38,440 nt of DNA from a virus (taxonomy: Duplodnaviria; Heunggongvirae; Uroviricota; Caudoviricetes). A program made the position numbers and the translations under genes. The stretch is taken from IMG/VR virus record IMGVR_UViG_2663762939_000006; one strand, given 5' to 3'. A model generated the notes under the pieces. The model made no database searches. It worked only from the letters and a program-made list of their open reading frames with translations, and was not told the DNA's origin. This document shows positions 8,595 to 38,440 of the stretch, one piece after another; position 1 is the stretch's first letter; each line of letters starts with the position of its first letter.

Positions 8595-9478
8595 CACACA
8601 CTCCTCGTCAGTATTCTGGCGGCCATTGCACTTAATCCCGGAGACATGCGGTTGAATGCTGTGCCGGCGGCGTTAAGCTGCCCGGAAACGGTATCCAGAG
8701 CACCTGCAATATTTCTTTTGTCCACACCACTCAGCGCAGACTGTGCCTGCTGTACATACGTGGCTGCTTCGCTGGCTGTTCTGGCCAGACTGATGGCATC
8801 GGGCATGGATTCAGAGAGTGCGTTAAACGCCGGAACACTTTTCCCCAGAGCCCCGGAGATATTACCCAGTCCGCTCATCAGCCCCGGCACACGGGTCAGT
8901 GCGACAACGGGGTTATCCTTCATTTTCTGTGTCACCCGAACGGCGCTGATAGTGGTCTGGAGTACAGACTGCGCCTGTTTCGCATAGTTGACGCCGTTGC
9001 GGATGAACTGCGCCACCCCTGAAGGCGAAGGAATGGCACCGGAGACCGCCCCGACACCCGGGAGCTTCGTGCGTATTGCCGGTGGTTGCAGAGGATTTTT
9101 CGGGTCACCGGTGTATTCCCGGAGAGACACGGTGGCACTGACAGCCAGCACGTTGCCGGTATTGTCAGTCTGCTCGCTGGTTGCAGTCACATCGGTAATC
9201 ACGAACCAGCCGCGATAGTCACCGTTGCCGAAGACCAGCGCCAGTGCCTGATGGGCTTTCATGGCTGTTCGCAGTCTCGCCAGCTCCACATCGGGTACAC
9301 AATAATGCTGATGGAAAACCAGAGTTATCTGGATTTCGTCCAGCCTGTCGCCGACGAACTGCAGGCCAGGCTTACCCCCGATGCGGGCATGCTCCGCATA
9401 ATCGACGCCGAACGTGGCCTCGAAGCCGTCCCAGTAGGTAATCAGCTCAAACTCAATATCACCCAGTACGGCAAACAT
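8594..9478 (-). CDS. DNA circulation protein (Mu N-like)
   Basis: 294 aa directly downstream of tape measure, overlapping stop/start; position as in Mu. Confidence 0.6.
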   Translation of the reverse strand: MFAVLGDIEFELITYWDGFEATFGVDYAEHARIGGKPGLQFVGDRLDEIQITLVFHQHYCVPDVELARLRTAMKAHQALALVFGNGDYRGWFVITDVTATSEQTDNTGNVLAVSATVSLREYTGDPKNPLQPPAIRTKLPGVGAVSGAIPSPSGVAQFIRNGVNYAKQAQSVLQTTISAVRVTQKMKDNPVVALTRVPGLMSGLGNISGALGKSVPAFNALSESMPDAISLARTASEAATYVQQAQSALSGVDKRNIAGALDTVSGQLNAAGTAFNRMSPGLSAMAARILTRSV

Positions 9479-12400: not shown

Positions 12401-12690
12401 TTCAGCGCATCACTGGTAGCGGATGCCGCTGACAGACGGCGCTGCTGGCGCTCAATTTGCTCCATGGTGCGGCTTACCCGCAGCAGCTCGCTGTTGAGAT
12501 GCTGCATCCGGGAAGAACCCAGTTGACCATAACGTTCTGTTGCACGGGTTAAAGCGTTCTGACGTTCCTGCAGGCGGCGTGAGGTATCGCTCAGGGAATC
12601 AAGCGCACGGCGGGTACCGCTCATTGCAGAACGGAATGTGCTGCCAATCATCCCGCCGATAACAACGCCGACTGAAAACTGTCCCGACAT
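9478..12690 (-). CDS. tail tape measure protein
   Basis: 1070 aa, Ala/Gly-rich with predicted coiled-coil and TM-like segments; three internal ~87-aa tandem repeats; follows the chaperone pair. Confidence 0.85.
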   Translation of the reverse strand: MSGQFSVGVVIGGMIGSTFRSAMSGTRRALDSLSDTSRRLQERQNALTRATERYGQLGSSRMQHLNSELLRVSRTMEQIERQQRRLSAASATSDALKANRMALYGQGIEAYGMAQTVYHTVSPAVQQSMSFQDKMIDMSITAKYDNKTRDALAGQIKGWALKYNQYQDELQEAVGSLISDNIDNVSDIGFLMPDIARAATATRTSAQDWAKVAAVWQNSLKGAARDFGAVQNIMAYAGDQGSFEIPDQVKWMQSLAPMMAGLASGKEAVAEIGASLQIAKIGAGSTDEAANNFKNFLTKIFARDTQKQFADLGIDLQGSIASYKAAGISPIEGMLSVIERYLNAKSPEALAGFKSAMKIKNDTARDEALQALAKNFGLGDMFADMQVMAFIRPMLANMDRYREIRAGALRAADNDLLASAYDQRLKSPLEATKTLMVSSRDLAITLGDQLAPSFISLTQELLPLIQGTKHWVATHPQFVSGAFKLISALLAIKIATVGLKLGLNLLISPFVNVWKTTVLLRTNWHRLTTALGEGGKLRWLVTGFSRLTSGGLKLSKVLAGSLVRGFMSAARAVLWIGRALMMNPIGLVITAVATAAYLIYRNWGAVSGWFKQRWADIQEAFNGGIVGIGKLLINWSPAGLLYKAFAAALKYFGVALPAKFTDFGGHLIDGLINGIKSKWGSLKSSVTGMGDSISSWFKQRWADIQEAFNGGIVGIGKLLINWSPAGLLYKAFAAALKYFGVALPAKFTDFGGHLIDGLINGIKNKWGSLKSSVTGMGDSISSWFKQCWADIQEAFNGGIAGTGKLLINWSPAGLLYKAFAAALKYLGVDLPAKFTDFGGHLVDGLINGIKNKWESLKSSVTGMGDSISGWFSEKLGIHSPSRVFMGFGDNIAQGAAIGLQRTTPLAALAGQRMASELLPRMPVSIQGPEIRDNTSGVRFSMPLPDINGFMSSAKNAIGAVINSLSSMPAIPLSTRASILPGQRLANEMTPDVPRIPSPEIMAAGYSGRGAAATGGGTSGGIQVSFNPQFFLNGRETTAPAGLTGALNMSLHELEKMLERLLAQKQRKEYR
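10060..10865. repeat. three tandem ~261-bp in-frame repeats inside the tape measure gene
   Basis: Unit starts at ~10081, 10342 and 10603 (CCAGC[C/T]ACTGATGCTGTC.CCCATTCCGG..); copies 2 and 3 nearly identical, copy 1 slightly diverged; 261-bp period preserves frame. Confidence 0.85.
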
Positions 12691-12765
12691 AGTGGTTAAC
12701 CTCCGGGGAAGGTGAAAAGACGTGAGGGGATAACGCAGAACAGCCGCTACTGGCGGCTGTCTGTA

Positions 12766-12862
12766 CTATGATTTGTCGCCGTACTCGCTTTTGATTTGCT
12801 CTTCAGCCTGCTCCAGCCACATCTCCAGATCGTCAGTATCGAGGGCATCAATCTCCCCCGGC
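12766..12862 (-). other. frameshift extension of the tail assembly chaperone (GT/E'-like long product), in the +1 (= -2) frame
   Basis: Second ORF overlaps the 3' end of the chaperone ORF and extends 82 nt past its stop; G5 run GCC GGG GGA GAT TGA at 12848-12862 is a candidate slip site. Confidence 0.5.
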
Positions 12863-19097: not shown

Positions 19098-19311
19098 TTT
19101 GCTGTCCCGCGTTATGTTGTCGGAGACAGTTTGTGAGAAATGCAGGCCCGGCGATTTTAATCTGCTTTAGAAAACATCAGGGGAGAAGGACAGGGAAAGC
19201 AATGCGGTGAACCGGAGGCGGTTATAAAACAGAGGCTGTAAAGCCTTTATAAAGGTAATACAGCCCCTCATTCGCTGGCAATGATAAATCACCCGCCTGA
19301 AGAGAGAAAAC

Positions 19312-19770
19312 TCAGCGACGGGCCGCTGATTCAAGATGGCGGACAATGGTATCGAGGATGGGGATTACCACTTCAGGCTGTAGTTCTCCATCCCCCGTCA
19401 CCGGCAGGAACGGGCGGGCCGGAAGTTCAACAGACTCATTACGCCCCGTTTTACCCCCGAACTGGTGAATGGCACCGTAAACAACGTTGGTCCCCACAAC
19501 AGCCTGCCGGTCGTCATGGTCGGTTGATACTGACCCCATCAGACGCCCGGTATCCTGCAGTGTCTGCCCGTCACGTTCTTCCGCTGCCAGCGAGGGGATC
19601 CACCCCGGACGCCCCTCATCAAGAAAGTTAAACTGTGTTTCCGCCAGCAGGGTTCCGGCGATTTTGCGCATCGCGGGCTCCAGGTCTGTGGCAGCAAGAT
19701 CCAGCGCACGGAGGCTCCGGCGCAGGGATTTATCGTTAATGGTGATACTGACCAGGTTATCGGAAGCCAT
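19312..19770 (-). CDS. virion morphogenesis protein (Mu G family)
   Basis: 152 aa with ..VVYGAIHQFGG.. motif typical of the Mu G family. Confidence 0.75.
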   Translation of the reverse strand: MASDNLVSITINDKSLRRSLRALDLAATDLEPAMRKIAGTLLAETQFNFLDEGRPGWIPSLAAEERDGQTLQDTGRLMGSVSTDHDDRQAVVGTNVVYGAIHQFGGKTGRNESVELPARPFLPVTGDGELQPEVVIPILDTIVRHLESAARR

Positions 19771-25409: not shown

Positions 25410-26147
25410 TTACGTACCCACACAGCTTGCCCCTCCCCATGAGAGATAACGCGGGGCCAGCGTGAACAGGATGCGCTGGGGATAATGACGGTTCTCCCGC
25501 CAGCTGGCAGTGCTGCGTCCGGCATTCACCGTGGCGACATGACCAAACCAGCGGGTGCTGTCCAGCCCTTTTTGTGATGCAAGCCGCCTGTCCCGCTGTA
25601 CCCAGCCCAGACCACCGTTATAGCCCGACAGTGTCATGGCCATACGCTCGCAGTCACTGGCGGCGCTGACGCGCTGCCACAGCCAGCGGTCATAGCTGAC
25701 CAGCGCCCGGATGGCCCATGCCGGATTAAATGGCTCACGGCTGTTAAGCCCCGGCATCAACTGACTTATCCAGTCGGCGGTGGCGGGCATGAACTGCGCC
25801 AGTCCCTGAGCGCCAACCGGCGAGATCGCATCAGGTCGCCAGCCGCTTTCCTGATGCAGTTGCGCAGCGAAATCAGCCACCGGCGCAGACAGTCCCCATT
25901 CAAGCCGGGCATTACGGATCACATCATCGCGATACTGCAGCGCTGCCTGCGGAGGCTGCGCTGCGCGGGCCTGACTGAAGAAGCCGCCACACCAGAGCAA
26001 CATTGCGACAAAGAATACCCGTGCCATATGAACCAGAAAGGTCCCGGCGCGGACTGACAGGCGTTCGGTTCTGATGAAGACCCTAAAGGCTTCGAAAGCC
26101 AGTTTCAGGGACATGCATACAATCCAGGTGATCTGCGGCCAGTTCAT
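25410..26147 (-). CDS. lytic transglycosylase-type endolysin (SLT domain), signal/SAR-anchored
   Basis: ..AQLHQESGWRPDAISPVGAQGLAQFMP.. SLT-like motif; hydrophobic N-terminus; ATG at 26145-26147 two nt after holin stop (alternative ATG 26027). Confidence 0.7.
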   Translation of the reverse strand: MNWPQITWIVCMSLKLAFEAFRVFIRTERLSVRAGTFLVHMARVFFVAMLLWCGGFFSQARAAQPPQAALQYRDDVIRNARLEWGLSAPVADFAAQLHQESGWRPDAISPVGAQGLAQFMPATADWISQLMPGLNSREPFNPAWAIRALVSYDRWLWQRVSAASDCERMAMTLSGYNGGLGWVQRDRRLASQKGLDSTRWFGHVATVNAGRSTASWRENRHYPQRILFTLAPRYLSWGGASCVGT

Positions 26148-26149
26148 GA

Positions 26150-26500
26150 TTAAAGCCCCATCGCAACAGCCAGACAGACCGCTGCAACAATCAGTGCACG
26201 GCGGATTAACGCAGCAGAAAACACCAGGTGAAGGCCGGTCTGTACCGGGAAACGCCCATCAGCCATCAGCCTGTCGTCATGTTTCAGGTACTGACCGGGA
26301 CGGGCTTTGGGGAAGAGCGAACGGTCAAGCCAGTAACCCAGCACTGCTGCCAGCGTGATGAGTGCCAGCTTGTAGATCACAACAGGCAACTGCTGTGGTG
26401 AGACCAGAGCGATGGTGCCCAGCAACAGCACTGAGGTCAGCAGCCAGCCGCTGAGGCGAGGTTTTTTAACAGGGGGAATGAATTTTTTCAGGTTTTTCAT
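26150..26500 (-). CDS. holin-like membrane protein
   Basis: ATG at 26498-26500 with SD AAGGAG; three predicted TM segments; first gene of the lysis cassette. Confidence 0.55.
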   Translation of the reverse strand: MKNLKKFIPPVKKPRLSGWLLTSVLLLGTIALVSPQQLPVVIYKLALITLAAVLGYWLDRSLFPKARPGQYLKHDDRLMADGRFPVQTGLHLVFSAALIRRALIVAAVCLAVAMGL

Positions 26501-28157: not shown

Positions 28158-28922
28158 ATGAAAATGCAGACATTACCCATCGTTCCATGGATTGGTGGCA
28201 AACGCCGCCTTGCAAAACACATTCTGCCGCTGTTTCCGGCGCATGAATGTTATGTGGAGCCGTTTTGTGGGGCAGCAGCGCTCTATTTTCTTAAGACACC
28301 CGGCAAGATCGAAGTCATTAATGATATCAACGGTGAACTGGTGAATCTGTACCGGGTGGTAAAGCATCACCTGGAAGAATTTGTCCGCCAGTTCAAATGG
28401 GCGCTGGTCAGCCGTCAGATCTACAAATGGCTGCAGATCACCCCGGAAGAAACACTGACGGATATCCAGCGTGCGGCACGGTTCTACTACCTTCAGAAGC
28501 AGGCGTTTGGCGGCAAGGTGGCAGAGCACAGCTTCGGTACCTCCACCACATCCCCGCCACGCTTCAACCTGCTGCGTATTGAAGAAGAACTGTCAACAGC
28601 ACACCTGCGGCTTTCCAGAACAGTCATAGAACACATGGACTGGCAACAGTGCATTGAGCGTTATGATCGTCCGCACACACTGTTCTACTGCGACCCACCG
28701 TACCTGGGTACGGAAGGCTATGGTGTGGATTTTCCTGAAGGGAACTACTCGCGGCTGGCAGAGCTGGCCCGGTGCATCAGAGGAAAAATGATAATTTCGG
28801 TGAACGATATCCCACAGATGCGCGAGGTGTTCACTGGACTGAACATACAGACAGTGAACATCAACTACAGTCTGGCGGGGAAATCCACGCCGCGCCGTGA
28901 ACTGGTAATCTGCAACTTCTGA
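28158..28922 (+). CDS. DNA N6-adenine methyltransferase (Dam-like, D12 class)
   Basis: N-terminal ..KRRLAKHILPLFPAHECYVEPFCGAAALYF.. and catalytic DPPY motif (YCDPPYLGTEGYG). Confidence 0.85.
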   Translation: MKMQTLPIVPWIGGKRRLAKHILPLFPAHECYVEPFCGAAALYFLKTPGKIEVINDINGELVNLYRVVKHHLEEFVRQFKWALVSRQIYKWLQITPEETLTDIQRAARFYYLQKQAFGGKVAEHSFGTSTTSPPRFNLLRIEEELSTAHLRLSRTVIEHMDWQQCIERYDRPHTLFYCDPPYLGTEGYGVDFPEGNYSRLAELARCIRGKMIISVNDIPQMREVFTGLNIQTVNINYSLAGKSTPRRELVICNF

Positions 28923-28952
28923 AACAAAACCGGAAAGCACAATGCTTTCCGG
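28922..28952 (-). terminator. rho-independent terminator downstream of the repressor gene
   Basis: 9-bp GC-rich stem CCGGAAAGC/GCTTTCCGG with 5-nt loop, followed on the minus strand by TTTTGTTT. Confidence 0.6.
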
Positions 28953-29038
28953 TAAACCAAACAACTTCCACTATGTCACTGGCGATGTTTTCTGAAAGCA
29001 TCCAGATCAACCACCTGTCCTTTGTGTCCAGGTCAAAA

Positions 29039-29377
29039 TCAGCCTGCGAGTTTGCTTGGTTTGGGTTGAATGAAGACTTTGCCGACCTCAAGAATTGCCC
29101 TCCGTTGTTCGGGGCTCATTTCGTCGAATGCATCCATTAACTCTTTCTTTTCTTGTGACACATAAGGTGCAACAACAGGCTGACTCCGCACCCCAGTAAC
29201 TACATACAAAATATCTACACCGATTTCTGATAGTGCAGATAACTGCACTGCAGTAGGAGAAGTGCGATCTTTTTCCCAATCAATGAAAGTTCTCTTTGCC
29301 ACACCTATAGCATCAGCCAACCCTTGCTGTGTAAGAGATAGACGCTCTCTTTCTTCTTTAATACGTAACCCGATCAT
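29039..29377 (-). CDS. XRE-family HTH repressor (immunity repressor candidate); start ambiguous (29377, 29452/29455 or 29530)
   Basis: MIGLRIKEERERLSLTQQGLADAIGVAKRTFIDWEKDRTSP is a classic XRE helix-turn-helix; divergent from the Ner-like gene. Confidence 0.7.
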   Translation of the reverse strand: MIGLRIKEERERLSLTQQGLADAIGVAKRTFIDWEKDRTSPTAVQLSALSEIGVDILYVVTGVRSQPVVAPYVSQEKKELMDAFDEMSPEQRRAILEVGKVFIQPKPSKLAG

Positions 29378-29401
29378 GTGAGTTTTTCTGCACTCTTTAA
29401 G

Positions 29402-29430
29402 TTGACTGGTGAGGTAATCTGCACCATAAT
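29402..29430 (+). promoter_or_regulatory. sigma70-type early promoter (-35 TTGACT, 17-bp spacer, -10 CATAAT) with overlapping imperfect palindrome
   Basis: Near-consensus hexamers 48 bp upstream of the Ner-like ATG; TGGTGAG-N6-TGCACCA palindrome spans the spacer. Confidence 0.6.
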
Positions 29431-29477
29431 CTATCACACATAAGGCAAACATCATTGCATCAACAAAGGAGACAACG

Positions 29478-29666
29478 ATGACTGCAGAACAAGTCAAAGC
29501 TCTCTTCCGCCAGCGCGGGATCACTTTCACCCGCTGGGCAGAAGAAAACGGCTACAACCGCAATGAGGTATACCGCGTTCTCAATGGGCAGACCAAAGCC
29601 CGTTACGGTAAATCCCATGAAATCGCCGTGAAGTTGGGGCTGAAATCAACAGCTCAGGCAGCCTGA
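29478..29666 (+). CDS. ner: Ner/Nlp-like small DNA-binding regulator
   Basis: SD AAAGGAGA then ATG 29478; ..GYNRNEVYRVLNGQTKARYGKSHEIAVKLGL aligns with Mu Ner ..GYAPTTLANALERHWPKGEQIIANAL as recalled. Confidence 0.6.
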   Translation: MTAEQVKALFRQRGITFTRWAEENGYNRNEVYRVLNGQTKARYGKSHEIAVKLGLKSTAQAA

Positions 29667-29712
29667 AGATTTTGAGTCTTTGTAAAAGGTTATCACATAT
29701 CGCAAAAGAGGT

Positions 29713-30027
29713 ATGCAGATGAGTAAGACGAATGTTTCAAGCTCCGGCAGTCGCATCCTCCGGGTACTCAAAGCGCTGCGCGGTCATGCCCTGAACGGTA
29801 TTTCCAACGGTGAACTGGCGGCAGCACTGCACGAGTCACCGGCAAACATCAACCGGGCACTCAACACCCTCATTGAAGAAGGGTTGGCCCTGAAACTGGA
29901 AAACGGGCGTTTCGCGCCGGGCATCCAGTTACTGCAGATCGCTATGGCCCACAGTAACGAGATGGCACGTGCACAGGATCGCATTAACGAAATCAACCAA
30001 CGTGTCATTTCAGGTAGTCGTTTGTAA
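29713..30027 (+). CDS. small winged-helix DNA-binding protein (IclR/MarR-like HTH)
   Basis: ..ILRVLKALRGHALNGISNGELAAALHESPANINRALNTLIEEGLA.. wHTH pattern; SD AAGAGG. Confidence 0.5.
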   Translation: MQMSKTNVSSSGSRILRVLKALRGHALNGISNGELAAALHESPANINRALNTLIEEGLALKLENGRFAPGIQLLQIAMAHSNEMARAQDRINEINQRVISGSRL

Positions 30028-30037
30028 GGAGTAATAA

Positions 30038-30949
30038 ATGGGACGCACCAAATCACCGATTAACACTGAACTGAACGCCGAGGTACCGCTGTCGGATGAT
30101 CTCAATGTCAGTCTGAACGCCATGACACAGCATCGTATGGAGATCATGCAGCAGTTTGGCGATGGTCAGCCCTATGAGCGTGATCGCATAGTTCATGAGG
30201 CTCGGTTTTATATGGCACAGAGCGCTGAGGCCATGCTGGAAGCAGGTAAACGACTTATTATTCTCAAAGAAAATGAACCTCACGGGGACTTTGTTGGAAT
30301 TGTAGAAGAACAACTTGGTCTGCATGTGCGCGCAGCACAACGAATGATGAAAGCATCTTTGAAATACCTTTCACCAAAACTAGAGCCAAAAGCGACAACG
30401 TTGTCGCTTTTAGGTAAGGCAAAATTATTTGAACTTGTTGCTGAAGATGACGACGACCTTGCTGAACTGGCCGACGGTGGCACAGTTGCCGGACTGACGC
30501 TTGACGATGTTGATCGCATGTCAGTACGTGAATTGCGTCAGGCCCTGCGCGAAGCGCGCGAAACCAACGCAGCACAACAGCGCGTACTCGCCGACAAAAA
30601 TGAAAAAATAGACTCACTCTCCACCAGACTGGAGAAGAAATCCCGTATTCAGCCACCTGAGCCTGATGAAGAGGTGAAGAAACTGCGGGCAGAAGTGACC
30701 GCGTTAGCGGTTGAGGCGGAATCTGCCATCGCCGTTCGACTGTCCAGCGCTTTTGAGACGCTGTGCGCATATTGTGCTGAAAACATGATTGATACCCCCA
30801 GAGACTTCATGGCAGGCCTGGTCTGTCAACTGGAAAGCACAGCGCGTAGCCTGCGCTCCACATTTGACCTGCCGGACGAGCCAACAGGCAATGCAGCGCC
30901 TTCATGGCTGACTGAGCCGACGCCACAGATTAACGGGCTGGAGGCATAA
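30038..30949 (+). CDS. hypothetical early protein (303 aa, coiled-coil-rich)
   Basis: SD AAGGAG, ATG 30038; immediately upstream of transposase. Confidence 0.5.
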   Translation: MGRTKSPINTELNAEVPLSDDLNVSLNAMTQHRMEIMQQFGDGQPYERDRIVHEARFYMAQSAEAMLEAGKRLIILKENEPHGDFVGIVEEQLGLHVRAAQRMMKASLKYLSPKLEPKATTLSLLGKAKLFELVAEDDDDLAELADGGTVAGLTLDDVDRMSVRELRQALREARETNAAQQRVLADKNEKIDSLSTRLEKKSRIQPPEPDEEVKKLRAEVTALAVEAESAIAVRLSSAFETLCAYCAENMIDTPRDFMAGLVCQLESTARSLRSTFDLPDEPTGNAAPSWLTEPTPQINGLEA

Positions 30950-30952
30950 CCA

Positions 30953-32722
30953 ATGAATGCTGCCCTGACTGAACGACTGGTTTATGTCGCCCGCGCGGCA
31001 CGTGACGCGGGGCATGGTAAACGCGGTGCAATATACGACGCTGCCTGTGCTGAACTTGGCATGTCCCGCGCCACTCTGCTGCGCAGGCTGAAGGAGGTCT
31101 CTGTGACTGATAAACGCAAAAAACGCGCCGATGCCGGGCGCAGCGCCCTGACCCGCGACGAAGCCGCGCTGATATCTGCCACACTGCGTGAGGCCACCCG
31201 CAAGAACGGTAAGCGTCTCTATTCCATCGCAGATGCAGTGGAAACCCTGCGGGCTAACGGCTTTATCACCGCAGGCAGAACAGATGAAACCACCGGTGAG
31301 TTTTTCCCGTTGTCCGAAGATGCCATCAGCCGAGCCCTGCGTAACTATGGCCTGCACCCGGAACAACTGGATGCCCCTGCGCCGCATACCGAAGTGGCCA
31401 GTCTGCATCCCAATCATGTCTGGCAGATTGATGCCTCTCTCTGCACGCTTTACTACCTGAGCAATGGACACAAAGGGCTGCAGGTGATGGACAGCGCGAA
31501 GTTCTACAAGAACAAACCCGCTAACCTTGCCCGTATCGCCAGTGACCGCGTGTGGAGTTACGAGATTACCGACCATGCCAGCGGCTGGATTTACGTTGAG
31601 TATGTGACGGGTGCGGAATCCGGTGAGAACCTGTGTTCTGTGCTTATCAACGCCATGCAGGAGCGTGGCGGCGCAGACGTGCTGCACGGCGTGCCAAAAA
31701 TACTCTATCTCGACCCCGGCTCGGCAAACACCGCGGGTATGACGAAAAACATGTGCCACTCACTGGGCATTGACCTGATAGCGCACAAGCCGCATAACGC
31801 CCGCGCCACCGGACAGGTGGAAAAGGCGCGTGACATTATCGAACGCAAGCTGGAGCCGGGTCTGAAGTTCCGGCCGGTTCACAGTCTGGAAGAACTCAAC
31901 GCGCTGGCCGCGAAATGGCGCAGCCACTTTAACGCCACGGCTGTTCACAGCCGCCACGGTAAAACCCGCACGGATATCTGGCTGAAGATTACTGCTGAGC
32001 AGCTGAAAAAAGCGCCTTCCGTTGAGGTATGCCGTGAACTGGCTGTGGCGGCACCAGAACTCCGCAAAGTCACGCCAAAACTTCGTGTCTCGTTCCGGGG
32101 CACTGAATTTGACGTATCAACGGTACCGGGCGTACTGGTTGGTGAAAAACTGATGATTACCCGTAACCCGTGGCGCAGCGATGTGGCACAGGTGGTTCTG
32201 ACCGGTGAGGACGGCCACGAGACGTTCTTCCTGGTCGAAGAGGTCAGAAAGAACGAGTTTGGCTTTGCTGAAGGCGCGGCGGTATTTGGCGAAAGTTACA
32301 AAGCCCTGCCGGAAACCCCGGCGCAGATGGCGGCAAAAGAAACCGAAGCGCTGGTCACCGGTACAGACAACGCCGCAGATGCAGCTGCCGCACGCAAGGC
32401 GAAGGCGCTGCCGTTCGGCGGGCGGCTTGACCCGTATAAACATATCGACGACACCACACTTCCGGCCTATATGCCGAAGCGTGGTCAGGCCTCTGACGTA
32501 CGCGGGCCGCGCACTGAACAACGTCCCATGACTCATGTGGAGGCCGCGAAAGCCCTGCGCGATAAGTTCAGCGCCGACGGCCTTACCTGGACGCCGGAAC
32601 ATTACCGCCAGTTAACGGCACAGTACCCGGACGGCGTACCGGAAGCCGCACTGGATGAAGTCATGGCCACGCTGACCACACCGGCCCGCAGCAGTGTTAT
32701 CAGCATTGTTAACGGCAACTGA
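30953..32722 (+). CDS. DDE transposase (Mu A-like, integrase-core fold)
   Basis: 589 aa; ..HVWQIDAS.. and ..LYLDPGSANT.. acidic-residue blocks consistent with a DDE/rve core; followed by a B-like ATPase. Confidence 0.8.
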   Translation: MNAALTERLVYVARAARDAGHGKRGAIYDAACAELGMSRATLLRRLKEVSVTDKRKKRADAGRSALTRDEAALISATLREATRKNGKRLYSIADAVETLRANGFITAGRTDETTGEFFPLSEDAISRALRNYGLHPEQLDAPAPHTEVASLHPNHVWQIDASLCTLYYLSNGHKGLQVMDSAKFYKNKPANLARIASDRVWSYEITDHASGWIYVEYVTGAESGENLCSVLINAMQERGGADVLHGVPKILYLDPGSANTAGMTKNMCHSLGIDLIAHKPHNARATGQVEKARDIIERKLEPGLKFRPVHSLEELNALAAKWRSHFNATAVHSRHGKTRTDIWLKITAEQLKKAPSVEVCRELAVAAPELRKVTPKLRVSFRGTEFDVSTVPGVLVGEKLMITRNPWRSDVAQVVLTGEDGHETFFLVEEVRKNEFGFAEGAAVFGESYKALPETPAQMAAKETEALVTGTDNAADAAAARKAKALPFGGRLDPYKHIDDTTLPAYMPKRGQASDVRGPRTEQRPMTHVEAAKALRDKFSADGLTWTPEHYRQLTAQYPDGVPEAALDEVMATLTTPARSSVISIVNGN

Positions 32723-32732
32723 GGAGGGAAAC

Positions 32733-33899
32733 ATGCTGGTACTGAAGCAGCAACTGAAAGAGGCCCGTATTCCACAGGCGGTGGTGGCGAGAGCTGTCGA
32801 TGTTTCTGAGGCCACGCTGGCCCAGATTGTGAATCATAACGCGTGGCCCCGCACCAGCCCCGGAGAAGTGCGCCGGCGTCTTGCGTCCTGGCTGGAAAGT
32901 CAGGGGATTGATACAACGAAGAGTTTTGATGCTGTACAGGGCGCGGCCACGCCCCGTACAGCGGGTACCACAGATAAAACGAGCCTCAGTGAGGAAGAGA
33001 ATATGTTACTCAAAAAACAGGTGTTATTTCCAGCAACCAAAAAAGCGTTTGGTCTTTTCCGTGACCCGTTCGCCGACGAAGCCATTCAGGGTTCTGATGA
33101 TGTGTTCACCACCCCGGACATTCGCTACGTGCGTGAGGCGTTGTACCAGACAGCCCGTCATGGTGGGTTTATGGCCGTCATCGGTGAGTCCGGTGCGGGT
33201 AAATCCACGCTGCGCCGCGACCTGACTGAACGTATCAACCGCGAGAATGCGCCGGTAATTGTTATCGAGCCATACATCATCGCTATGGAAGACAACGATG
33301 TGAAAGGGAAAACCCTGAAGGCAGCAGCGATTGCCGAAGCCATTATCAGTACCATCGCACCACTGGAAAGCATCAGACGCAGTCAGGACGCCCGCTTTCG
33401 CCAGTTGCATCGCGTCCTGAAAGACAGCAGCCAGGCGGGGTTCAGCCACGTTCTGGTGATTGAGGAGGCCCACAGTCTGCCTATTCCGACACTGAAACAC
33501 CTCAAACGCTTTTTTGAGCTGGAGTCCGGTTTCAAAAAACTGCTGTCCATCGTGCTGATTGGCCAGCCGGAACTGGCGACAAAACTGTCTGAACGCAATA
33601 TGGAAGTCCGTGAAGTCGTTCAGCGCTGTGAGGTGGTCGAACTTCTGCCTCTGGACAATAACCTTGAAGAGTTTCTGACGTTCAAACTGCAACGGGCCGG
33701 TAAACAACTGACGGACATTATGGACGCCAGCGCAGTGGATGCCATACGTGCCCGCCTGAGCAATCCGGGAAGTCATCGTAAAAATATGGTCAGCCTGCTG
33801 TATCCGCTGGCCGTCAGTAACCTGGTAATAGCCGCCATGAATCTGGCCGCTGAAATCGGGGTTCCACAGGTCAACGCTGACGTTGTCAAAGGGGTTTAA
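32733..33899 (+). CDS. transposition ATPase (Mu B-like AAA+ with N-terminal HTH)
   Basis: ATG 32733 after SD GAGGAGGG; Walker A GESGAGKST; N-terminal DNA-binding-like segment. Confidence 0.75.
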   Translation: MLVLKQQLKEARIPQAVVARAVDVSEATLAQIVNHNAWPRTSPGEVRRRLASWLESQGIDTTKSFDAVQGAATPRTAGTTDKTSLSEEENMLLKKQVLFPATKKAFGLFRDPFADEAIQGSDDVFTTPDIRYVREALYQTARHGGFMAVIGESGAGKSTLRRDLTERINRENAPVIVIEPYIIAMEDNDVKGKTLKAAAIAEAIISTIAPLESIRRSQDARFRQLHRVLKDSSQAGFSHVLVIEEAHSLPIPTLKHLKRFFELESGFKKLLSIVLIGQPELATKLSERNMEVREVVQRCEVVELLPLDNNLEEFLTFKLQRAGKQLTDIMDASAVDAIRARLSNPGSHRKNMVSLLYPLAVSNLVIAAMNLAAEIGVPQVNADVVKGV

Positions 33900-33901
33900 T
33901 A

Positions 33902-34171
33902 ATGAAATCCACCACAGGTATCAACCAGCAAATCAGCAAAGTGCAGTCAGCCATTATGGCGCTTAAGGCGACGAACACGGATGTACAAAGCATCACCATC
34001 AGGGGTAACAAACCTGTCATCCGCGTTTCCCGGAGTGCGCATTGCATGCGCATGCTTGAGCAGGGAAAGGCCTGTTATCTGTATACCGGTCATGACCACA
34101 GGGGACATTTCCGTCAGGGCGTTTTCGAACTGCACGGCTGTCGCGTCGTGTGGCCGGAATCTTTGTGGTAA
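33902..34171 (+). CDS. hypothetical small protein (Cys/His-containing)
   Basis: ATG 33902 abutting B stop (TAATAATG). Confidence 0.45.
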   Translation: MKSTTGINQQISKVQSAIMALKATNTDVQSITIRGNKPVIRVSRSAHCMRMLEQGKACYLYTGHDHRGHFRQGVFELHGCRVVWPESLW

Positions 34172-34198
34172 TCAGCACAACAGGAGGAGTCATAAAAT

Positions 34199-34729
34199 AT
34201 GGCAAAAAGTACAAAAGGGGCAAAACGTATCAAAGCCGCAGCAGCACTCTGGGTGCCGGGGACACGCGAAGAGGTCATTGAGGGAATCAGACTGCTTGGT
34301 GACGCGCAACGTGAACTGGTCAGGGCTGAAACAGAAATGAATGACACCATTGGCGACATCACCGCACGTTATGCCCCGCTCACCGAGAGCCTGAAAAAAC
34401 GCATGGCCGAACTGCAGTCCGGTATTCAGACATGGTGTGAGGCACACCGTAATGAACTGACCGGCAACGGGAAGGTGAAGTTCGCTAACCTCACCACCGG
34501 CGAGGTGCAGTGGCGAAACCGTCCGCCATCAGTCAGTATCCGTGGGGCGGATAATGTTATTGAATTACTGAGACGTCTGGGGCTTGAGCGCTTTATCCGT
34601 GTAAAGGAGGAAATAAATAAAGACGCCATCCTGAATGAAAAGGACGCCGTGAAAAATATTCCCGGTATTACCATAAAAAGTGATATTGAGGATTTTTCAA
34701 TAATTCCTTTTGAGCAGAATGTGCAGTAA
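34199..34729 (+). CDS. gam: Gam-like host-nuclease inhibitor (DNA-end binding)
   Basis: SD AGGAGG; 176 aa; N-terminal Lys-rich ..RIKAAAALWVPGTREEV.. then coiled-coil, as in Mu Gam. Confidence 0.7.
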   Translation: MAKSTKGAKRIKAAAALWVPGTREEVIEGIRLLGDAQRELVRAETEMNDTIGDITARYAPLTESLKKRMAELQSGIQTWCEAHRNELTGNGKVKFANLTTGEVQWRNRPPSVSIRGADNVIELLRRLGLERFIRVKEEINKDAILNEKDAVKNIPGITIKSDIEDFSIIPFEQNVQ

Positions 34730-34825
34730 AAACAGCATATAAGCTATTTAAAACAGCCTTTTCTTTTTTATTCCGGCATCAGCGCCGTGGGCTTCTGCAC
34801 GCCGGAAACAGAGGAGAATTAAATC

Positions 34826-35020
34826 ATGATATTTAAATGTATTCAGTGCGAGAGGGATATAACAGCCCTGCGTTTTCACAGCGCCATCGCCGTGATGTCC
34901 GGTAAGTACCACGTACCTGCAGTACGCGTCACCCTGGTCTGTCCGTACTGCAGTCAGCATTTTTCGGCAGACGTGCCCGTCATGGAATTCTCCCGCCCTG
35001 ACAGGGAGGACTCGCAATGA
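34826..35020 (+). CDS. small zinc-ribbon protein (CxxC...CxxC)
   Basis: CIQC and CPYC pairs; SD GAGGAG. Confidence 0.5.
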   Translation: MIFKCIQCERDITALRFHSAIAVMSGKYHVPAVRVTLVCPYCSQHFSADVPVMEFSRPDREDSQ

Positions 35021-35289
35021 TTACCCCACAGGAAGCACGACAGCGCACCCGAACCCTTGTTGAACACTATGTCAACGAGTGTGAATGCCGCGACCTCACC
35101 GATGTGAAGCACGTCCTGACGGCGCTAATCAGCATGACCGCTCAGGCCATTGTGGCGACCAACGGAAAGGCGGCTGCCCTGCAGGTACTGGTGAACACAC
35201 TCACCCACACGGCAGAGCACGATGTGCCGTACCGGATGGAAACCACTGCAGAAGGCGGCCTGCACATCACCGTCGACCGGAAACACTGA
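35017..35289 (+). CDS. hypothetical protein (90 aa)
   Basis: ATG overlaps upstream stop (ATGA); SD GGGAGGA. Confidence 0.45.
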   Translation: MITPQEARQRTRTLVEHYVNECECRDLTDVKHVLTALISMTAQAIVATNGKAAALQVLVNTLTHTAEHDVPYRMETTAEGGLHITVDRKH

Positions 35290-35298
35290 GGGCGCGGC

Positions 35299-35604
35299 AT
35301 GACACGGAACACCGAACTCACCCGCACCGCCCTCTACCGTCTGGCCCTGCAGCGTTTCGGGCCGGACGCACAGGCCCTGAAACTGACAGAAGAGGCCGCT
35401 GAACTGGCGGCCAGTGCCGCCCGCAACCTGAACGGACAGGGCAGCGAAAGTGACCTCGCGGCAGAGCTGGCAGACGTGGAAATCATGACAGAGCAGCTGC
35501 GCCTTCAGGGAATGGACCGGCTGATTGACTTCCACAAACAGAAAAAACTGGAACGCCTTGCCGCACGGCTGGGCGTCATGTACACCGGAGATACTGAACA
35601 ATGA
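35299..35604 (+). CDS. MazG-like nucleotide pyrophosphohydrolase domain protein
   Basis: ..LTEEAAELAASAAR.. and ..AAELADVEIMTEQL.. resemble the EExxE / ExxD metal-binding helices of MazG-family proteins. Confidence 0.5.
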   Translation: MTRNTELTRTALYRLALQRFGPDAQALKLTEEAAELAASAARNLNGQGSESDLAAELADVEIMTEQLRLQGMDRLIDFHKQKKLERLAARLGVMYTGDTEQ

Positions 35605-36284
35605 CAGACCAGGATAAACACATTGAGAAACTGAAAAAGTTGCTGGCGCTGGCCGCATCCGGCAACCCTCACGAGGCCGCTCTGGCACTGCGCCGTGCCC
35701 GTAAACTGATGGATGTTCACGGCATCACACATTCCGACATCGCCATGAGTGATATTGATGAAACCATCAGTCACTACTGGCCGACAGGCAGCCTCCGTCC
35801 ACCGCGCTACATGCTGGGCCTGATGAACATCATCCGCGAGGCATTTGGTGTTAACTCCATCATTCACCCCGGCACATATCCGGGTGTGGGGTTCTACGGC
35901 AACCGGGAACGGGCTGCACTGGCTGCGTACACCTGGGAAGTGCTGGCCCGCCAGCTGAAAAAGGCGCGTCAGCAATATATCAGCGCACAGAACAAAAGAA
36001 TAAAAACTGCCACCCGTACCAGCCGTGGTGACCAGTTTGCTGAAGGCTGGGTGCTGGCCGTTATCAGTGAAATACAGTCCTTCGCCCTGACCGATGACGA
36101 ACGTGAACTGATGCAGCAGTGGCTGGAACATAAATACCCGCAGACGCAAACCACCAGGGCGCGTAAACCGGGAAGAAGCCGCAATGGCGACGCCTCGCGC
36201 TATGCGGGGTTTCTTGAAGGGCAGAACGTCAGACTGCACCGCCCGGTCAGTGGGCAGGAACAACAGAAACTGGAGGCCAGATGA
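35601..36284 (+). CDS. hypothetical protein with DUF2786-like N-terminus
   Basis: ..KHIEKLKKLLALAASGNPHEAALALRRARKLM.. ; translationally coupled. Confidence 0.45.
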   Translation: MTDQDKHIEKLKKLLALAASGNPHEAALALRRARKLMDVHGITHSDIAMSDIDETISHYWPTGSLRPPRYMLGLMNIIREAFGVNSIIHPGTYPGVGFYGNRERAALAAYTWEVLARQLKKARQQYISAQNKRIKTATRTSRGDQFAEGWVLAVISEIQSFALTDDERELMQQWLEHKYPQTQTTRARKPGRSRNGDASRYAGFLEGQNVRLHRPVSGQEQQKLEAR

Positions 36285-36511
36285 TTACGCTATCAGGTAA
36301 AAGCCGGAAATTAAAAGCCTGCCGAATATCTGCCAGATACCTTTTTGCCCGCGCCTTTTTTAAGAACGTCAGGCCGGGGATCACAATTGGTGTTATTGCC
36401 GGACGCGAACAGGTTGAAAAATACATGTCAGGTGCATGGTGGAATAACGACCCTGTCATTGCTGCCCGTAATATTCATATCAGTTGGGGGGATATTCAGA
36501 ATGACGGCTGA
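36281..36511 (+). CDS. hypothetical small protein (76 aa)
   Basis: ATG 36281 overlaps upstream stop; SD GGAGG. Confidence 0.4.
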   Translation: MITLSGKSRKLKACRISARYLFARAFFKNVRPGITIGVIAGREQVEKYMSGAWWNNDPVIAARNIHISWGDIQNDG

Positions 36512-36716
36512 ATCTGTTGTATGTGCCCTGTTCTGGTATTGTTTTGTCGGTTGGTGTACTGCTGAACTGCACCGCCGTTCAGGGTTTTATTCACGTTACA
36601 GTGGTGCTGGCTACTGGATTAGCTGGTCGGTGATGTTCCTGTGCTGGCCTGTGGCGCTTCCTTTATATGTCGATTATATCGGTGGCGCAGGTAAAAGGAG
36701 CAACGATGATGACTAA
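36501..36716 (+). CDS. small membrane protein (two predicted TM helices)
   Basis: ATG 36501 overlaps upstream stop; hydrophobic segments VVCALFWYCFVGW and WSVMFLCWPVALPLYV. Confidence 0.45.
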   Translation: MTAESVVCALFWYCFVGWCTAELHRRSGFYSRYSGAGYWISWSVMFLCWPVALPLYVDYIGGAGKRSNDDD

Positions 36717-37158
36717 ACAACGTCTTATCCAGCTCATTCATATTGCCCGTAATGAACTGGGTATGGATGAAGACACCTACCGCCAGATGTTACAGGGGCT
36801 GACCGGTAAAGCCTCAACCAAAGGAATGGATACCACACAACTAAACTGCGTGCTGGAATCCATGAAAAGGAAAGGCTTTCGCGTTAAGCCTGCCGGAAAA
36901 GCCAGCTCCGGTTTACCGCTGGATAACCATCCGCAGTCCAGGAAAATCCGTGCGCTATGGCTTGAAATGGCTGCTGCCGGCATTGTTCGTGACCGTTCAG
37001 AAAATGCATTAGCGCGGTGGATCAAGCGGGAAACGGGCATCAGCGCCCTGCGCTGGCTCAGTACTGAACAGGCAAGCAGTGTTATTGAGAAACTGAAGAA
37101 GTGGCAGCGCAGAGCTGCGGGAGTCAAACATGAGCGACCTGAATCAGTTTCGAAGTAA
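36706..37158 (+). CDS. gemA: GemA-like regulatory protein
   Basis: SD AAAAGGAG, ATG 36706; ..LIQLIHIARNELGMDEDTYRQMLQGLTGKAS.. resembles the Mu GemA family. Confidence 0.6.
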   Translation: MMTKQRLIQLIHIARNELGMDEDTYRQMLQGLTGKASTKGMDTTQLNCVLESMKRKGFRVKPAGKASSGLPLDNHPQSRKIRALWLEMAAAGIVRDRSENALARWIKRETGISALRWLSTEQASSVIEKLKKWQRRAAGVKHERPESVSK

Positions 37159-37528
37159 AGGGCCGGAACTCCTGGTGGAGCTGGCACAGCATACCTCTGA
37201 GACCGTTCGCGAGATTATTGATATTGAGCCCGCAATTGCCGACCAGATTGGTCAGGCCGTCGCGAACCGAATGATGCAGGTCTGGGGCGGGCAAAATGTT
37301 TATTTCCCGATGGGCATGGTATGGAAGGTCAGTCAGCGCGACCGGGAAATCTTCAGGGAGTTTAACGGACGCAACCACCACGAACTGGCCCGCAAGTTTG
37401 GTGTTTCGCTTCAGTGGGTCTACAGCGTGGTTAAGCGGGTCAGAAAAGAAGAACTGGATCGGATGCAGGGCAGGTTGTTTGATGAAGATCTGCCAGAGGA
37501 GACGAAAGACGTTAACAAATCCAGATAA
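37130..37528 (+). CDS. mor: Mor/C-family transcription activator
   Basis: 132 aa; C-terminal HTH ..NHHELARKFGVSLQWVYSVVKRVRKEE.. typical of the Mor/C family; last gene of the early operon as in Mu. Confidence 0.7.
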   Translation: MSDLNQFRSKGPELLVELAQHTSETVREIIDIEPAIADQIGQAVANRMMQVWGGQNVYFPMGMVWKVSQRDREIFREFNGRNHHELARKFGVSLQWVYSVVKRVRKEELDRMQGRLFDEDLPEETKDVNKSR

Positions 37529-37573
37529 TTCCTGCTTGTTAAAGTCCTTTCAAAAATCTCCTTATTGTATAAA

Positions 37574-37604
37574 AGCACGGTAGACCCCTTACCGTGCTTT
37601 TTTT
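37574..37604 (+). terminator. rho-independent terminator after the Mor-like gene
   Basis: 9-bp stem AGCACGGTA/TACCGTGCT, 7-nt loop, then TTTTTT. Confidence 0.8.
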
Positions 37605-37642
37605 ATGCTCTCTCTTTAGTATTCAGGATGCAGGGAGAAAAT

Positions 37643-38275
37643 ATGTTTGACGTTTCGTTGTTAAATCTGCCATGGGCAACACTGGTGACCCTGACCAGTG
37701 GCTATATTGGGTATTTTATTGCGAATGTGGGACTGAAGGATCACCACAAGCCCATTGAGGTGACTTTTTCTTCGCTGATTTTTGGCCTGACAGCAATGAT
37801 GGCTTACCAGGCTGTTATGTGGGCAGGTCTGAATGCCTGGCTGGCAACACCACCAGCACTTCTGTGTGCCGTTACATGCGGTGCGTGGTGGCGCAGGTAC
37901 GGTCGCAAATGGATGTACAGATTACTGTGGAATAATGATATTTCATGGTCTGACGATACCAGCTCAGCATGGCAGGCAATGTTTGATCAAACAGGCTTCA
38001 GCGTTACCGAGGTCAGAGTGATTCTTCGCGATGGTTCCGGTATGATGTCACGGCTGCCAGGGAACTTTGAAGAGTGGCCTAACGGTCCGTTTACCCTGGG
38101 GAATAAAGGCGATATGGTTCTTTACGTCACGCACAGCAGCCCTTCAGGCAGTAACGAATGGGAAGAGTATAAAGGCGTGGTTGATAAGTACTGGGGAGCT
38201 CTGGCAACCTATATTCCAGCAGATCAGATTGCCAGAGTGGAGATCAGGCGCGTTCGTGCAACGAACGATGAATGA
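37643..38275 (+). CDS. membrane protein of unknown function (3 predicted TM helices plus ~130-aa C-terminal domain)
   Basis: ATG 37643 with SD GGGAG (the track's upstream start lies inside the terminator); hydrophobic N-terminal third. Confidence 0.55.
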   Translation: MFDVSLLNLPWATLVTLTSGYIGYFIANVGLKDHHKPIEVTFSSLIFGLTAMMAYQAVMWAGLNAWLATPPALLCAVTCGAWWRRYGRKWMYRLLWNNDISWSDDTSSAWQAMFDQTGFSVTEVRVILRDGSGMMSRLPGNFEEWPNGPFTLGNKGDMVLYVTHSSPSGSNEWEEYKGVVDKYWGALATYIPADQIARVEIRRVRATNDE

Positions 38276-38278
38276 TGT

Positions 38279-38440
38279 TTATTTTTTCCCTGGGGCAGGG
38301 GCTGCCGGCATAGTGGTTTTATTGGCAGAGGAAGACGATTCTCCTTTTCTACCGGAATCGCGCTCGAACGTCACGATGTGCTTGCTTTTGGGCTTTTCTG
38401 AGTAATCCAGGCTATCATGCTTATTGTTTTGAGTAGTCAT
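38279..38440 (-). CDS. small Lys/Ser-rich hydrophilic ORF (53 aa in window; may extend past window end)
   Basis: ATG at the last three bases of the window, stop TAA 38279-38281; convergent with the membrane protein gene. Confidence 0.3.
   Translation of the reverse strand: MTTQNNKHDSLDYSEKPKSKHIVTFERDSGRKGESSSSANKTTMPAAPAPGKK

Follow-up and report, generated by a model that had tools for sequence, protein, structure and literature searches.

Gene X and gene Y, a membrane protein gene and a convergent microprotein gene carried as mobile cargo at the end of a Mu-like Escherichia coli prophage

Behind the last early gene of the prophage in IMG/VR virus record IMGVR_UViG_2663762939_000006, a terminator is followed by a gene for a small membrane protein, here gene X, and by a short open reading frame (ORF), here gene Y, that runs towards it on the other strand. 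The question raised by this locus is what a membrane protein set apart in this way does for the phage that carries it. The window, meaning the whole stretch of 38,440 nucleotides (nt) that was analysed, is a 38.4-kilobase (kb) Mu-like (BcepMu-like) transposable prophage of Escherichia coli, and its positions 37000-38440 are 100% identical to E. coli ABU 83972 and O25:NM 2014EL-1343-2. An earlier sequence-only reading had proposed superinfection exclusion or abortive infection as the role of X and had given the small ORF no part in it. Such a role for X is plausible, but the small ORF appears from its pattern of conservation to be a partner under purifying selection with a promoter of its own, and on this evidence X is better seen as one component of a two-part module than as an exclusion protein acting alone.

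A mobile two-gene cassette between mor and the prophage end

The DNA that carries X and Y has sharp boundaries (Table 1). Homology shared with related prophages ends at 37488, within the last 40 nt of mor (break at 37484-37488 against loci L005, L002 and L003), and returns only for the terminal 40 base pairs (bp), window-equivalent 38597-38636, which form the prophage end (blastn of the mor-to-end regions). Four different Klebsiella insertion junctions place this end at ...TGATCA, which maps onto the window ~196 bp past position 38440; this makes X and Y the outermost genes of the prophage on its early side. A related gemA-mor region is present in ~640 of the 5426 complete E. coli genomes, but only 132 carry X/Y, and X is missing from ~80% of the related E. 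coli prophages. In the common prophage of sequence type 131 (ST131) located beside ycaL, the prophage end lies within ~160 bp of mor (L005, L006); a different gene encoding 109 amino acids (aa) occupies the X/Y slot in KP12; and neither gene was found in the BcepMu and PhiKM genomes. A divergent prophage in strain DEF10 carries X and Y at 88% identity downstream of a different mor. The G+C content of X (0.499) and Y (0.469) differs modestly from that of the window (0.549). Presence or absence among syntenic relatives, sharp boundaries and deviating base composition are features of a moron, and the interval 37489-38440 plus ~155 bp is a self-contained, horizontally mobile two-gene accessory cassette of this kind, cargo and not core, flanked by mor on one side and on the other by the end at which the transposase of this BcepMu-like prophage binds. 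The idea that X stands apart from the conserved phage genes is borne out in this respect. A search of plasmids returned one full-length distant copy and otherwise fragments only; in the collections searched the cassette is essentially prophage-borne. The last ~13 codons of mor also differ between prophages with and without X/Y, the Mor C-terminus having been swapped along with the cargo.

X and Y are found together far beyond this prophage. A Y-like ORF of ~40-66 aa converges on X in ~27 lineages, down to 37% X identity, with a spacing that ranges from a 20-nt overlap to a 7-nt gap (43 nt in one case), and the pairing is seen in nearly every locus with enough downstream DNA. The hosts include enterobacteria (E. 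coli, Klebsiella, Salmonella, Citrobacter, Serratia and Symbiopectobacterium) and Alphaproteobacteria (Bradyrhizobium, Afipia, Devosia, Rhizobiaceae and Ochrobactrum). A profile search of the protein database from the Y side returned only 21 Y-like proteins, all unnamed, and the hits that were traced to contigs adjoined an X-like gene. X and Y co-travel, stop-to-stop and convergent, in unrelated prophages of two proteobacterial classes.

The genomic contexts of the pair differ between these classes. In Enterobacterales the order is always gemA-mor-terminator-X-Y-end, with Mor proteins that are just 32-100% identical. In Alphaproteobacteria the pair separates head-tail connector genes in HK97-type prophages (L051, L074), follows genes for portal and head proteins (L052, L056), or lies beside a serine resolvase (L065, L068; truncated in L013) or Dam (L066). 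Defence-type genes neighbour some of the distant copies, namely Abi_alpha/PDC-S47 and PDC-S67 in Afipia and DUF4145 in Devosia, and a Type IIG restriction-modification enzyme adjoins the copy in Synechococcus phage Ssp-JY41. An additional gene pair at the Ssp-JY41 locus is BrnT/BrnA-like by eye only. The Bradyrhizobium and Afipia loci have a third conserved gene (156-174 aa) directly upstream of Y on the same strand (L013 5802-6272 (-), L065 4789-5313 (-)), for which no Pfam or PADLOC hit was obtained; Y is there the second gene of a two-gene unit converging on X.

Features of the two gene products

X is annotated in RefSeq with identical coordinates (Table 1). Its AlphaFold2 model (predicted local distance difference test score, pLDDT, 86) has helices at residues 11-27, 37-60 and 65-97 and a beta-rich domain at 119-205. 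Three hydrophobic peaks and a positive-inside charge distribution predict an N-out/C-in topology with the KDHHK loop and the RRYGRK segment inside, and the beta domain is therefore predicted to be cytoplasmic. As modelled, X spans the inner membrane with three helices (N-out/C-in) and carries an Sm/SH3-like beta-barrel on the cytoplasmic side. The sequence-only reading had described a protein with three transmembrane (TM) segments, its own Shine-Dalgarno (SD) sequence and a soluble domain of ~130 aa. The predicted helices agree with the hydrophobicity and a GGGAG precedes the ATG; the soluble domain is likewise present, but it comprises only ~113 aa (residues 98-210). The first membrane helix, with its KDHHK loop, is the most conserved part of X (majority fraction 0.89, against 0.63 for the barrel), which suggests that the membrane part is more than an anchor.

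No family had been recognised for X, and profile searches give the same picture: X has no match among Pfam, NCBIfam and PADLOC models (Pfam and PADLOC-DB v2 at E <= 1) and matches only PHROG 12870, a family without assigned function. The X family is uniform in size at ~205 aa (about 200-220 aa), with 72 clustered-database hits and 522 representatives at 50% identity, and no solved structure was found among the X relatives. A distant link leads to DUF6338 (PF19865), which 20 of 35 aligned X relatives match weakly, at 22.5-25.9 bits; all of these scores are below the gathering score of 26.5, the matches span only positions ~31-144 of the 205 in the profile, and X itself gives no hit to this model at E <= 1. 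On these profile scores, X is a remote, sub-threshold relative of DUF6338 and not a formal member. We take DUF6338 proteins to be integral membrane proteins of ~165-225 aa, a description that X, with 210 aa and three helices, fits. Foldseek detected a weak resemblance of the X membrane part to holin models (E 0.03-1), and three helices with an N-out/C-in topology are also found in class I holins such as lambda S and LydA. Such holins are small proteins with a short, charged C-terminus whose genes stand beside the endolysin gene in the lysis cassette. X, by contrast, has a folded cytoplasmic domain of ~110 aa, is encoded ~11 kb from the lysis cassette and is dispensable in most relatives, and the class I holin reading was rejected on these three grounds.

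Y was described previously as a small hydrophilic ORF converging on X, with the stops 3 nt apart, which stands (38440-38279), and as possibly part of a larger gene, which does not: Y is annotated as a complete 53-aa protein, and only ~196 bp separate the end of the window from the prophage end. The protein starts with MTTQNNK, contains an LDYSE..PK motif and ends in a PAAPAPGKK tail. Its single-sequence AlphaFold2 model has no secondary structure, and no match was found in Pfam, PDB sequences or PADLOC-DB v2 (the last at E <= 1). Features common to Y proteins are an M-T/S-x-K/Q-N start, an aromatic..P-K-S/T motif and a C-terminal polyproline-lysine tail (PPxPxKK), with tails such as PAAPAPGKK, PPLPLKKK, PPIRPKK, VPPPPKK, PPAPKKK and PPPSPKKK. 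Ratios of nonsynonymous to synonymous substitution rates (dN/dS, Nei-Gojobori) are 0.05-0.25 for Y and 0.08-0.19 for X in pairs with dS from 0.4 to above 1.5, and the purifying selection on Y extends over its whole length. The Y promoter, which lies just outside the window (Table 1), is kept 36-43 nt upstream of the Y ATG, with 9-10 of 12 consensus matches, in 11 of the 13 enteric loci with usable upstream sequence; it is conserved though its flanks have diverged, and the Y SD sequence is conserved as well. Judged by these substitution ratios and motifs, Y is a genuine microprotein of ~50 aa under purifying selection, with a conserved sigma-70 promoter.

A short, low-complexity ORF that is often left uncalled by gene finders, as Y is in the Klebsiella loci, might also be a chance ORF in a region that is non-functional filler at the prophage end. 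The chance explanation is contradicted because the ORF stays open, in like place and orientation, in ~27 lineages, because dN/dS is as low as stated at dS above 1, because the promoter and SD sequence are conserved, and because homologues have been seen by mass spectrometry (see below). We consider it hardly credible.

Just past the end of the window, the Y promoter is bracketed by an inverted repeat (L001 13442-13520, window-equivalent 38441-38519). One arm, CATCCTTC, stands right after the -35 hexamer, and its complement, GAAGGATG, ~45 nt downstream, makes up the Y SD region; the repeat is conserved in E. coli, Klebsiella, Salmonella, Citrobacter and Serratia loci. It could form an anti-SD/SD stem in transcripts that enter from past the prophage end, such that only transcripts from the Y promoter itself are translated, or it could alternatively be an operator.

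The terminator after mor and the expression of X

The strong terminator that was thought to close the early operon is indeed present and is kept by covariation. The hairpin at 37571-37601 reads AAAAGCACGGTA-GACCCCT-TACCGTGCTTTT and is followed by a T-run; a terminator scan calls it terminator-like (13 pairs), and the 117-nt leader folds with z = -3.8 relative to shuffles. Across nine divergent loci, compensatory change on both sides is seen in 8 of the 12 stem pairs and 88% of cells are paired, a level reached by 0 of 500 shuffles, whereas shifted registers are only 36-60% paired. A conserved terminator separates X from the early operon. Such insulation had been read as a mark of exclusion or abortive-infection functions; on its own it is no sign of expression in the lysogen, since the Mu promoter Pm overlays just such a terminator.

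A promoter search ahead of X, as had been called for, yields candidates, none of which exceeds 8 of 12 consensus matches. The first is a weak promoter nested in the terminator, with a -35-like TAGACC in the loop (37581-37586), a 17-nt spacer and a -10-like TATGCT (37604-37609). In six of nine divergent loci a loop motif T(G/A)GA(T/C) and a TAT(T/G)CT hexamer are found 17-18 nt apart despite differing stems. The other candidate is a -10 element, TAGTAT, lacking a -35 element, and from it we infer a possible Mor-dependent promoter of the Mu Pm type: the start it predicts would put the centre of the hairpin (37586) at about -43, as in Mu. According to the Mu annotation, the Mor-activated Pm (9163-9233) contains a terminator (9179-9200) just after mor and drives gp18, gp19 (4-TM), gp20 (1-TM) and C. 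The dyad to which Mor binds has its centre at -43.5 of Pm, a promoter with a -10 element and without a -35 element (PMC4287176); gp19 and gp20 are non-essential membrane proteins of the middle gene class (PMC9239132).

These parallels raise the alternative that X is a Mor-activated middle gene, the counterpart of Mu gp18, gp19 and gp20 under Pm, and that the hairpin is both the early terminator and part of a Mor-dependent promoter without a -35 element. Expression of X would then be confined to lytic growth, with some effect on the membrane there (lysis timing, superinfection exclusion or similar), and the constitutive, convergent Y would keep X silent or neutralised in the lysogen. The layout of the window is like that of Mu, with the mor stop at 37528, a terminator over the promoter region and a short distance to the first ATG at 37643, and the first Mu middle products are small, non-essential membrane proteins as X is membrane-bound and optional. 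The hairpin centre lies ~43 nt upstream of the start predicted from TAGTAT, there is no promoter of 9 or more of 12 matches ahead of X, and all enteric X genes directly follow mor. At locus L047, on a viral contig, the X homologue follows not Mor but a 107-aa zinc-finger protein (2656-2979, + strand) that is Ogr/Delta-like by eye, a late-activator type, and X would then follow a late-transcription activator in two unrelated phage types.

Against Mor control, the cassette also occurs outside Mu-like phages, where no Mor is detectable (the alphaproteobacterial HK97-type operons and resolvase loci), and relatives with a nearly identical Mor carry nothing downstream of mor. No common Mor-binding motif emerged when the X upstream region was compared with the late intergenic regions (GCACGGTA, CGGTA-N7-TACCG, CCTTTAATAT), none of which offered a convincing site at fixed spacing, and the covariation of the stem fits an RNA terminator and not a fixed protein-binding site. 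The Mu Pm unit includes the activator C, whereas here the stretch from mor to the prophage end contains just X and the convergent Y, with no C-type activator after X. The cassette further differs from the Mu middle operon in being optional and in having a convergent partner, and no homology was seen between X/Y and Mu gp18-20. We regard the Mor-dependent alternative as somewhat unlikely, though it is the main rival of the reading that we favour.

The terminator scan found none between X and Y, nor any inside X in the region downstream of Y; on this result the two convergent transcripts are expected to overlap, and they could interfere with each other. Promoter scans of the alphaproteobacterial loci gave matches no better than chance. 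Elsewhere in the window, several late intergenic stretches (13246 (-) and 6634 (-), also 19098-19320 and 12691-12850) have a hairpin and a T-rich run followed by an identical CCTTTAATATC, an element similar to the CCTCAATATCC of Mu Pm and to the CTCTTTAGTATTC ahead of X. These stretches are candidate activator-dependent late promoters that overlap terminators.

The other gene blocks of the prophage are given in Table 1. The Burkholderia phage BcepMu has the same inverted layout, with its Mor homologue gp01 as the gene closest to its left end, and PhiKM is a related isolate classified in Bcepmuvirus. Insertions of the prophage are found in xylR and, within other prophages, in a tail gene of lambdoid type and a tail region of P2 type (L001, L007, L075). 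These varied sites are consistent with near-random transposition, and as many as three copies of the region occur in some E. coli genomes. Identical 17-mers at 10425-10441 and 10686-10702, 261 nt apart, suggest an internal tandem duplication in the 1070-aa gene at 9478-12690 (-), which probably encodes the tape measure protein.

Table 1. Coordinates of the cassette, its signals and other features of the prophage
Feature	Position	Strand	Remarks
Cassette-specific DNA	37489..38440, plus ~155 bp outside window		Missing from otherwise syntenic prophages
Gene X, WP_000460689.1	37643..38275	+	210 aa; ATG 37643, TGA 38273-38275
Gene Y, WP_001571575.1	38279..38440	-	53 aa; stop TTA (+ strand) 38279-38281, 3 nt from X stop
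Intrinsic terminator	37571..37604	+	12-13 bp stem, 5-7 nt loop, T-run
Candidate weak sigma-70 promoter, terminator-nested	37581..37609	+	8/12 consensus matches
Alternative -10 TAGTAT, no -35	37617..37622	+	Candidate, from sequence plus Mu layout
Shine-Dalgarno GGGAG of X	37633..37637	+	5 nt ahead of ATG
Sigma-70 promoter of Y, TTGAAA-N18-TAGAAT	Window-equivalent 38513-38484, outside window	-	10/12 consensus matches
mor	37130..37528	+	Last gene of early operon; Pfam Mor E = 1e-43
Early operon	28158-37528	+	DDE transposase, ExeA/MuB-like ATPase, Gam, GemA, Mor
Late genes	1-26533	-	
Lysis genes	Holin 26150-26500; transglycosylase 25410-26147		~11 kb from X

Possible functions of the pair

Our best guess, held tentatively, is that X and Y are a toxin-antidote-like membrane effector and the microprotein that restrains it, used in conflicts between phages. 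X would act on the membrane, either by forming a pore or leaking ions or by obstructing a membrane machine of the host. Y, constitutively made in the lysogen, would bind the cytoplasmic barrel of X through its proline tail and hold X in check; small SH3/Sm-type beta-barrels are classic binders of polyproline. X would be freed if Y were lost or titrated away or if X were made in a burst, and freed X would bring about abortive infection or exclusion, aiding the prophage in its conflicts with other phages.

The closest precedent for X/Y, in architecture only, is SpoIISA/SpoIISB of Bacillus, where the gene products likewise are a membrane protein and a small, hydrophilic, disordered partner (56 aa in the case of SpoIISB). 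The toxin, SpoIISA, crosses the membrane with three segments and has a cytoplasmic domain that is wrapped by the natively disordered antitoxin SpoIISB (PMC3057836). A Pfam search gave no hit to SpoIISA in X. The cytoplasmic domain of SpoIISA is GAF-like and that of X an Sm/SH3-like barrel in its model, and the spoIIS genes are co-directional and chromosomal, whereas X and Y are convergent and in a prophage.

A second comparison comes from proteomics of Pseudomonas stutzeri ATCC 14405, in which three new proline-rich small proteins of <50 aa were found to be encoded directly downstream of a DUF6338 gene (PMC10433244). Two of these are MVSSPGSGVQTNGANPPAPANVRPAMAPTAPPPPKK and MTKKIGGNPGSPVQGGVNKETTSQRPSAPPSAPPPPPKKGG; they were detected with 44-114 peptide-spectrum matches in ordinary uninduced cultures, and the authors considered them species-specific and assigned them no function (PMC10433244). 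This mass spectrometry shows that such microproteins are translated in uninduced cells. The PPPPKK tail and a VQG..TT..RPS.PP motif are common to the P. stutzeri proteins and alphaproteobacterial Y, e.g., ...REVQGNHIPTTNERPSTPPPSPKKK in L013, and the shared motifs show, at the level of sequence, that the small proteins belong to a wider family and are not species-specific. The P. stutzeri locus and X/Y are alike in the size of the membrane protein (~200 aa), its N-terminal membrane part and the adjacent proline-rich microproteins, and differ in that P. stutzeri has three co-directional partner genes where X has a single convergent one. These likenesses indicate that DUF6338-like membrane proteins are paired with PPxPKK microproteins more widely. 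A DUF1156 methylase and an SNF2/PLD helicase are encoded ~14-20 kb upstream of the P. stutzeri locus (PMC10433244 supplement, CP036186.1:2646334-2652095). By its neighbourhood, the P. stutzeri DUF6338 locus may also sit in a defence island. We take the methylase and helicase to resemble DISARM-type defence genes.

The toxin-antidote-like reading has a number of observations to contend with. The convergent order of X and Y is unusual for toxin-antitoxin pairs, and the P. stutzeri genes are co-directional with three copies of the small gene. Neither X nor Y matched any of the known defence models (PADLOC-DB v2, E <= 1). The charge of Y is not conserved, ranging from +4 to strongly acidic, and some strongly acidic versions are without the terminal lysines. 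X is found without Y at L047, an apparently intact case, and in the decaying prophages of insect endosymbionts (L042, L062, L063), where Y has been deleted and a remnant of its promoter is left; this is awkward for an obligatory antidote. No promoter above the 8 of 12 matches given earlier was found upstream of X, and X may be silent in lysogens, sitting as it does where Mu has its Mor-dependent Pm. The hosts of the three decaying prophages are Symbiopectobacterium, Candidatus Pantoea persica and Arsenophonus; L062 and L063 have a small deletion in the RKYGRK segment of X, and in L042 X is extended to 231 aa.

The persistence of X without Y is what would be expected if X alone were a superinfection-exclusion protein, expressed in the lysogen and blocking DNA entry or an inner-membrane receptor or transport complex, with Y as just a regulator that works by convergent transcription, or as an unrelated passenger. 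X is an optional, membrane-located and terminator-insulated protein at the prophage end, its most conserved part is the first helix, as expected for contact with a conserved host membrane partner, and a weak conserved promoter may be nested in its terminator. Prophage morons and exclusion proteins such as HK97 gp15 and lambda RexB with RexA share with X/Y the pattern of presence and absence, a position at a genome end or in a late operon, lower G+C, terminator insulation and membrane location, although no homology links them to X/Y. Set against a role for X alone is the co-inheritance of Y across very large distances under purifying selection along its full length, from which it is argued that the Y protein is part of the function. 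To our knowledge, exclusion proteins such as HK97 gp15, T4 Imm and P22 SieA each work alone and have no partner of this kind, and we know of no convergent two-gene design with a disordered, proline-rich partner in systems of the HK97 gp15 or RexAB type. X also matched no Pfam, NCBIfam or PADLOC model. A role for X alone seems to us quite unlikely.

The roles could also be reversed, with Y as the active product, e.g., a proline-rich peptide acting on ribosomes or competitors, and X as its exporter, processing partner or immunity protein. DUF6338 has been noted in biosynthetic gene clusters, and a possible antimicrobial role of the proline-rich small proteins was raised for P. stutzeri (PMC10433244). 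Y-like proteins are abundant in that organism, three of them are encoded in tandem at the locus, and the polyproline C-terminus is conserved. On inspection, however, no signal peptide or leader-like segment was seen in Y, and the cassette itself contains no ATPase or other energising component. X has just three membrane helices, and Y varies in charge from +4 to strongly negative and is without resemblance to any Pfam family. An active Y peptide is in our view improbable.

To return to the restrained membrane effector, a broader and more doubtful extension of it is that pairs of DUF6338-like proteins and PPxPKK microproteins constitute an unrecognised, widespread two-component system, in which the SH3/Sm-like cytoplasmic barrel of a three-helix membrane effector would be gated by the polyproline tail of a disordered microprotein and which several types of prophage would use as a new kind of abortive-infection or exclusion (toxin-antidote) module.

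If X and Y are a functional unit, they would be a new family of prophage cargo, present in ~2% of complete E. coli genomes, including the ST131 and ABU 83972 lineages, and also in Klebsiella, Salmonella, Proteus, Serratia, insect symbionts and rhizobia. The catalogued systems for defence and the known toxin-antitoxin systems showed no homology to X/Y, and no described system matches the pair. A literature search for the E. coli X/Y genes by RefSeq accession and PHROG id returned no publication, the only related report being the P. stutzeri proteomics note (PMC10433244). The locus also raises the regulatory question of whether the terminator after mor is at the same time a promoter, as at Mu Pm, and with it whether X serves a lysogenic or a lytic function. 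The pairing of X with Y would give a testable role to proline-rich microproteins, which gene finders usually miss, and would link them to DUF6338.

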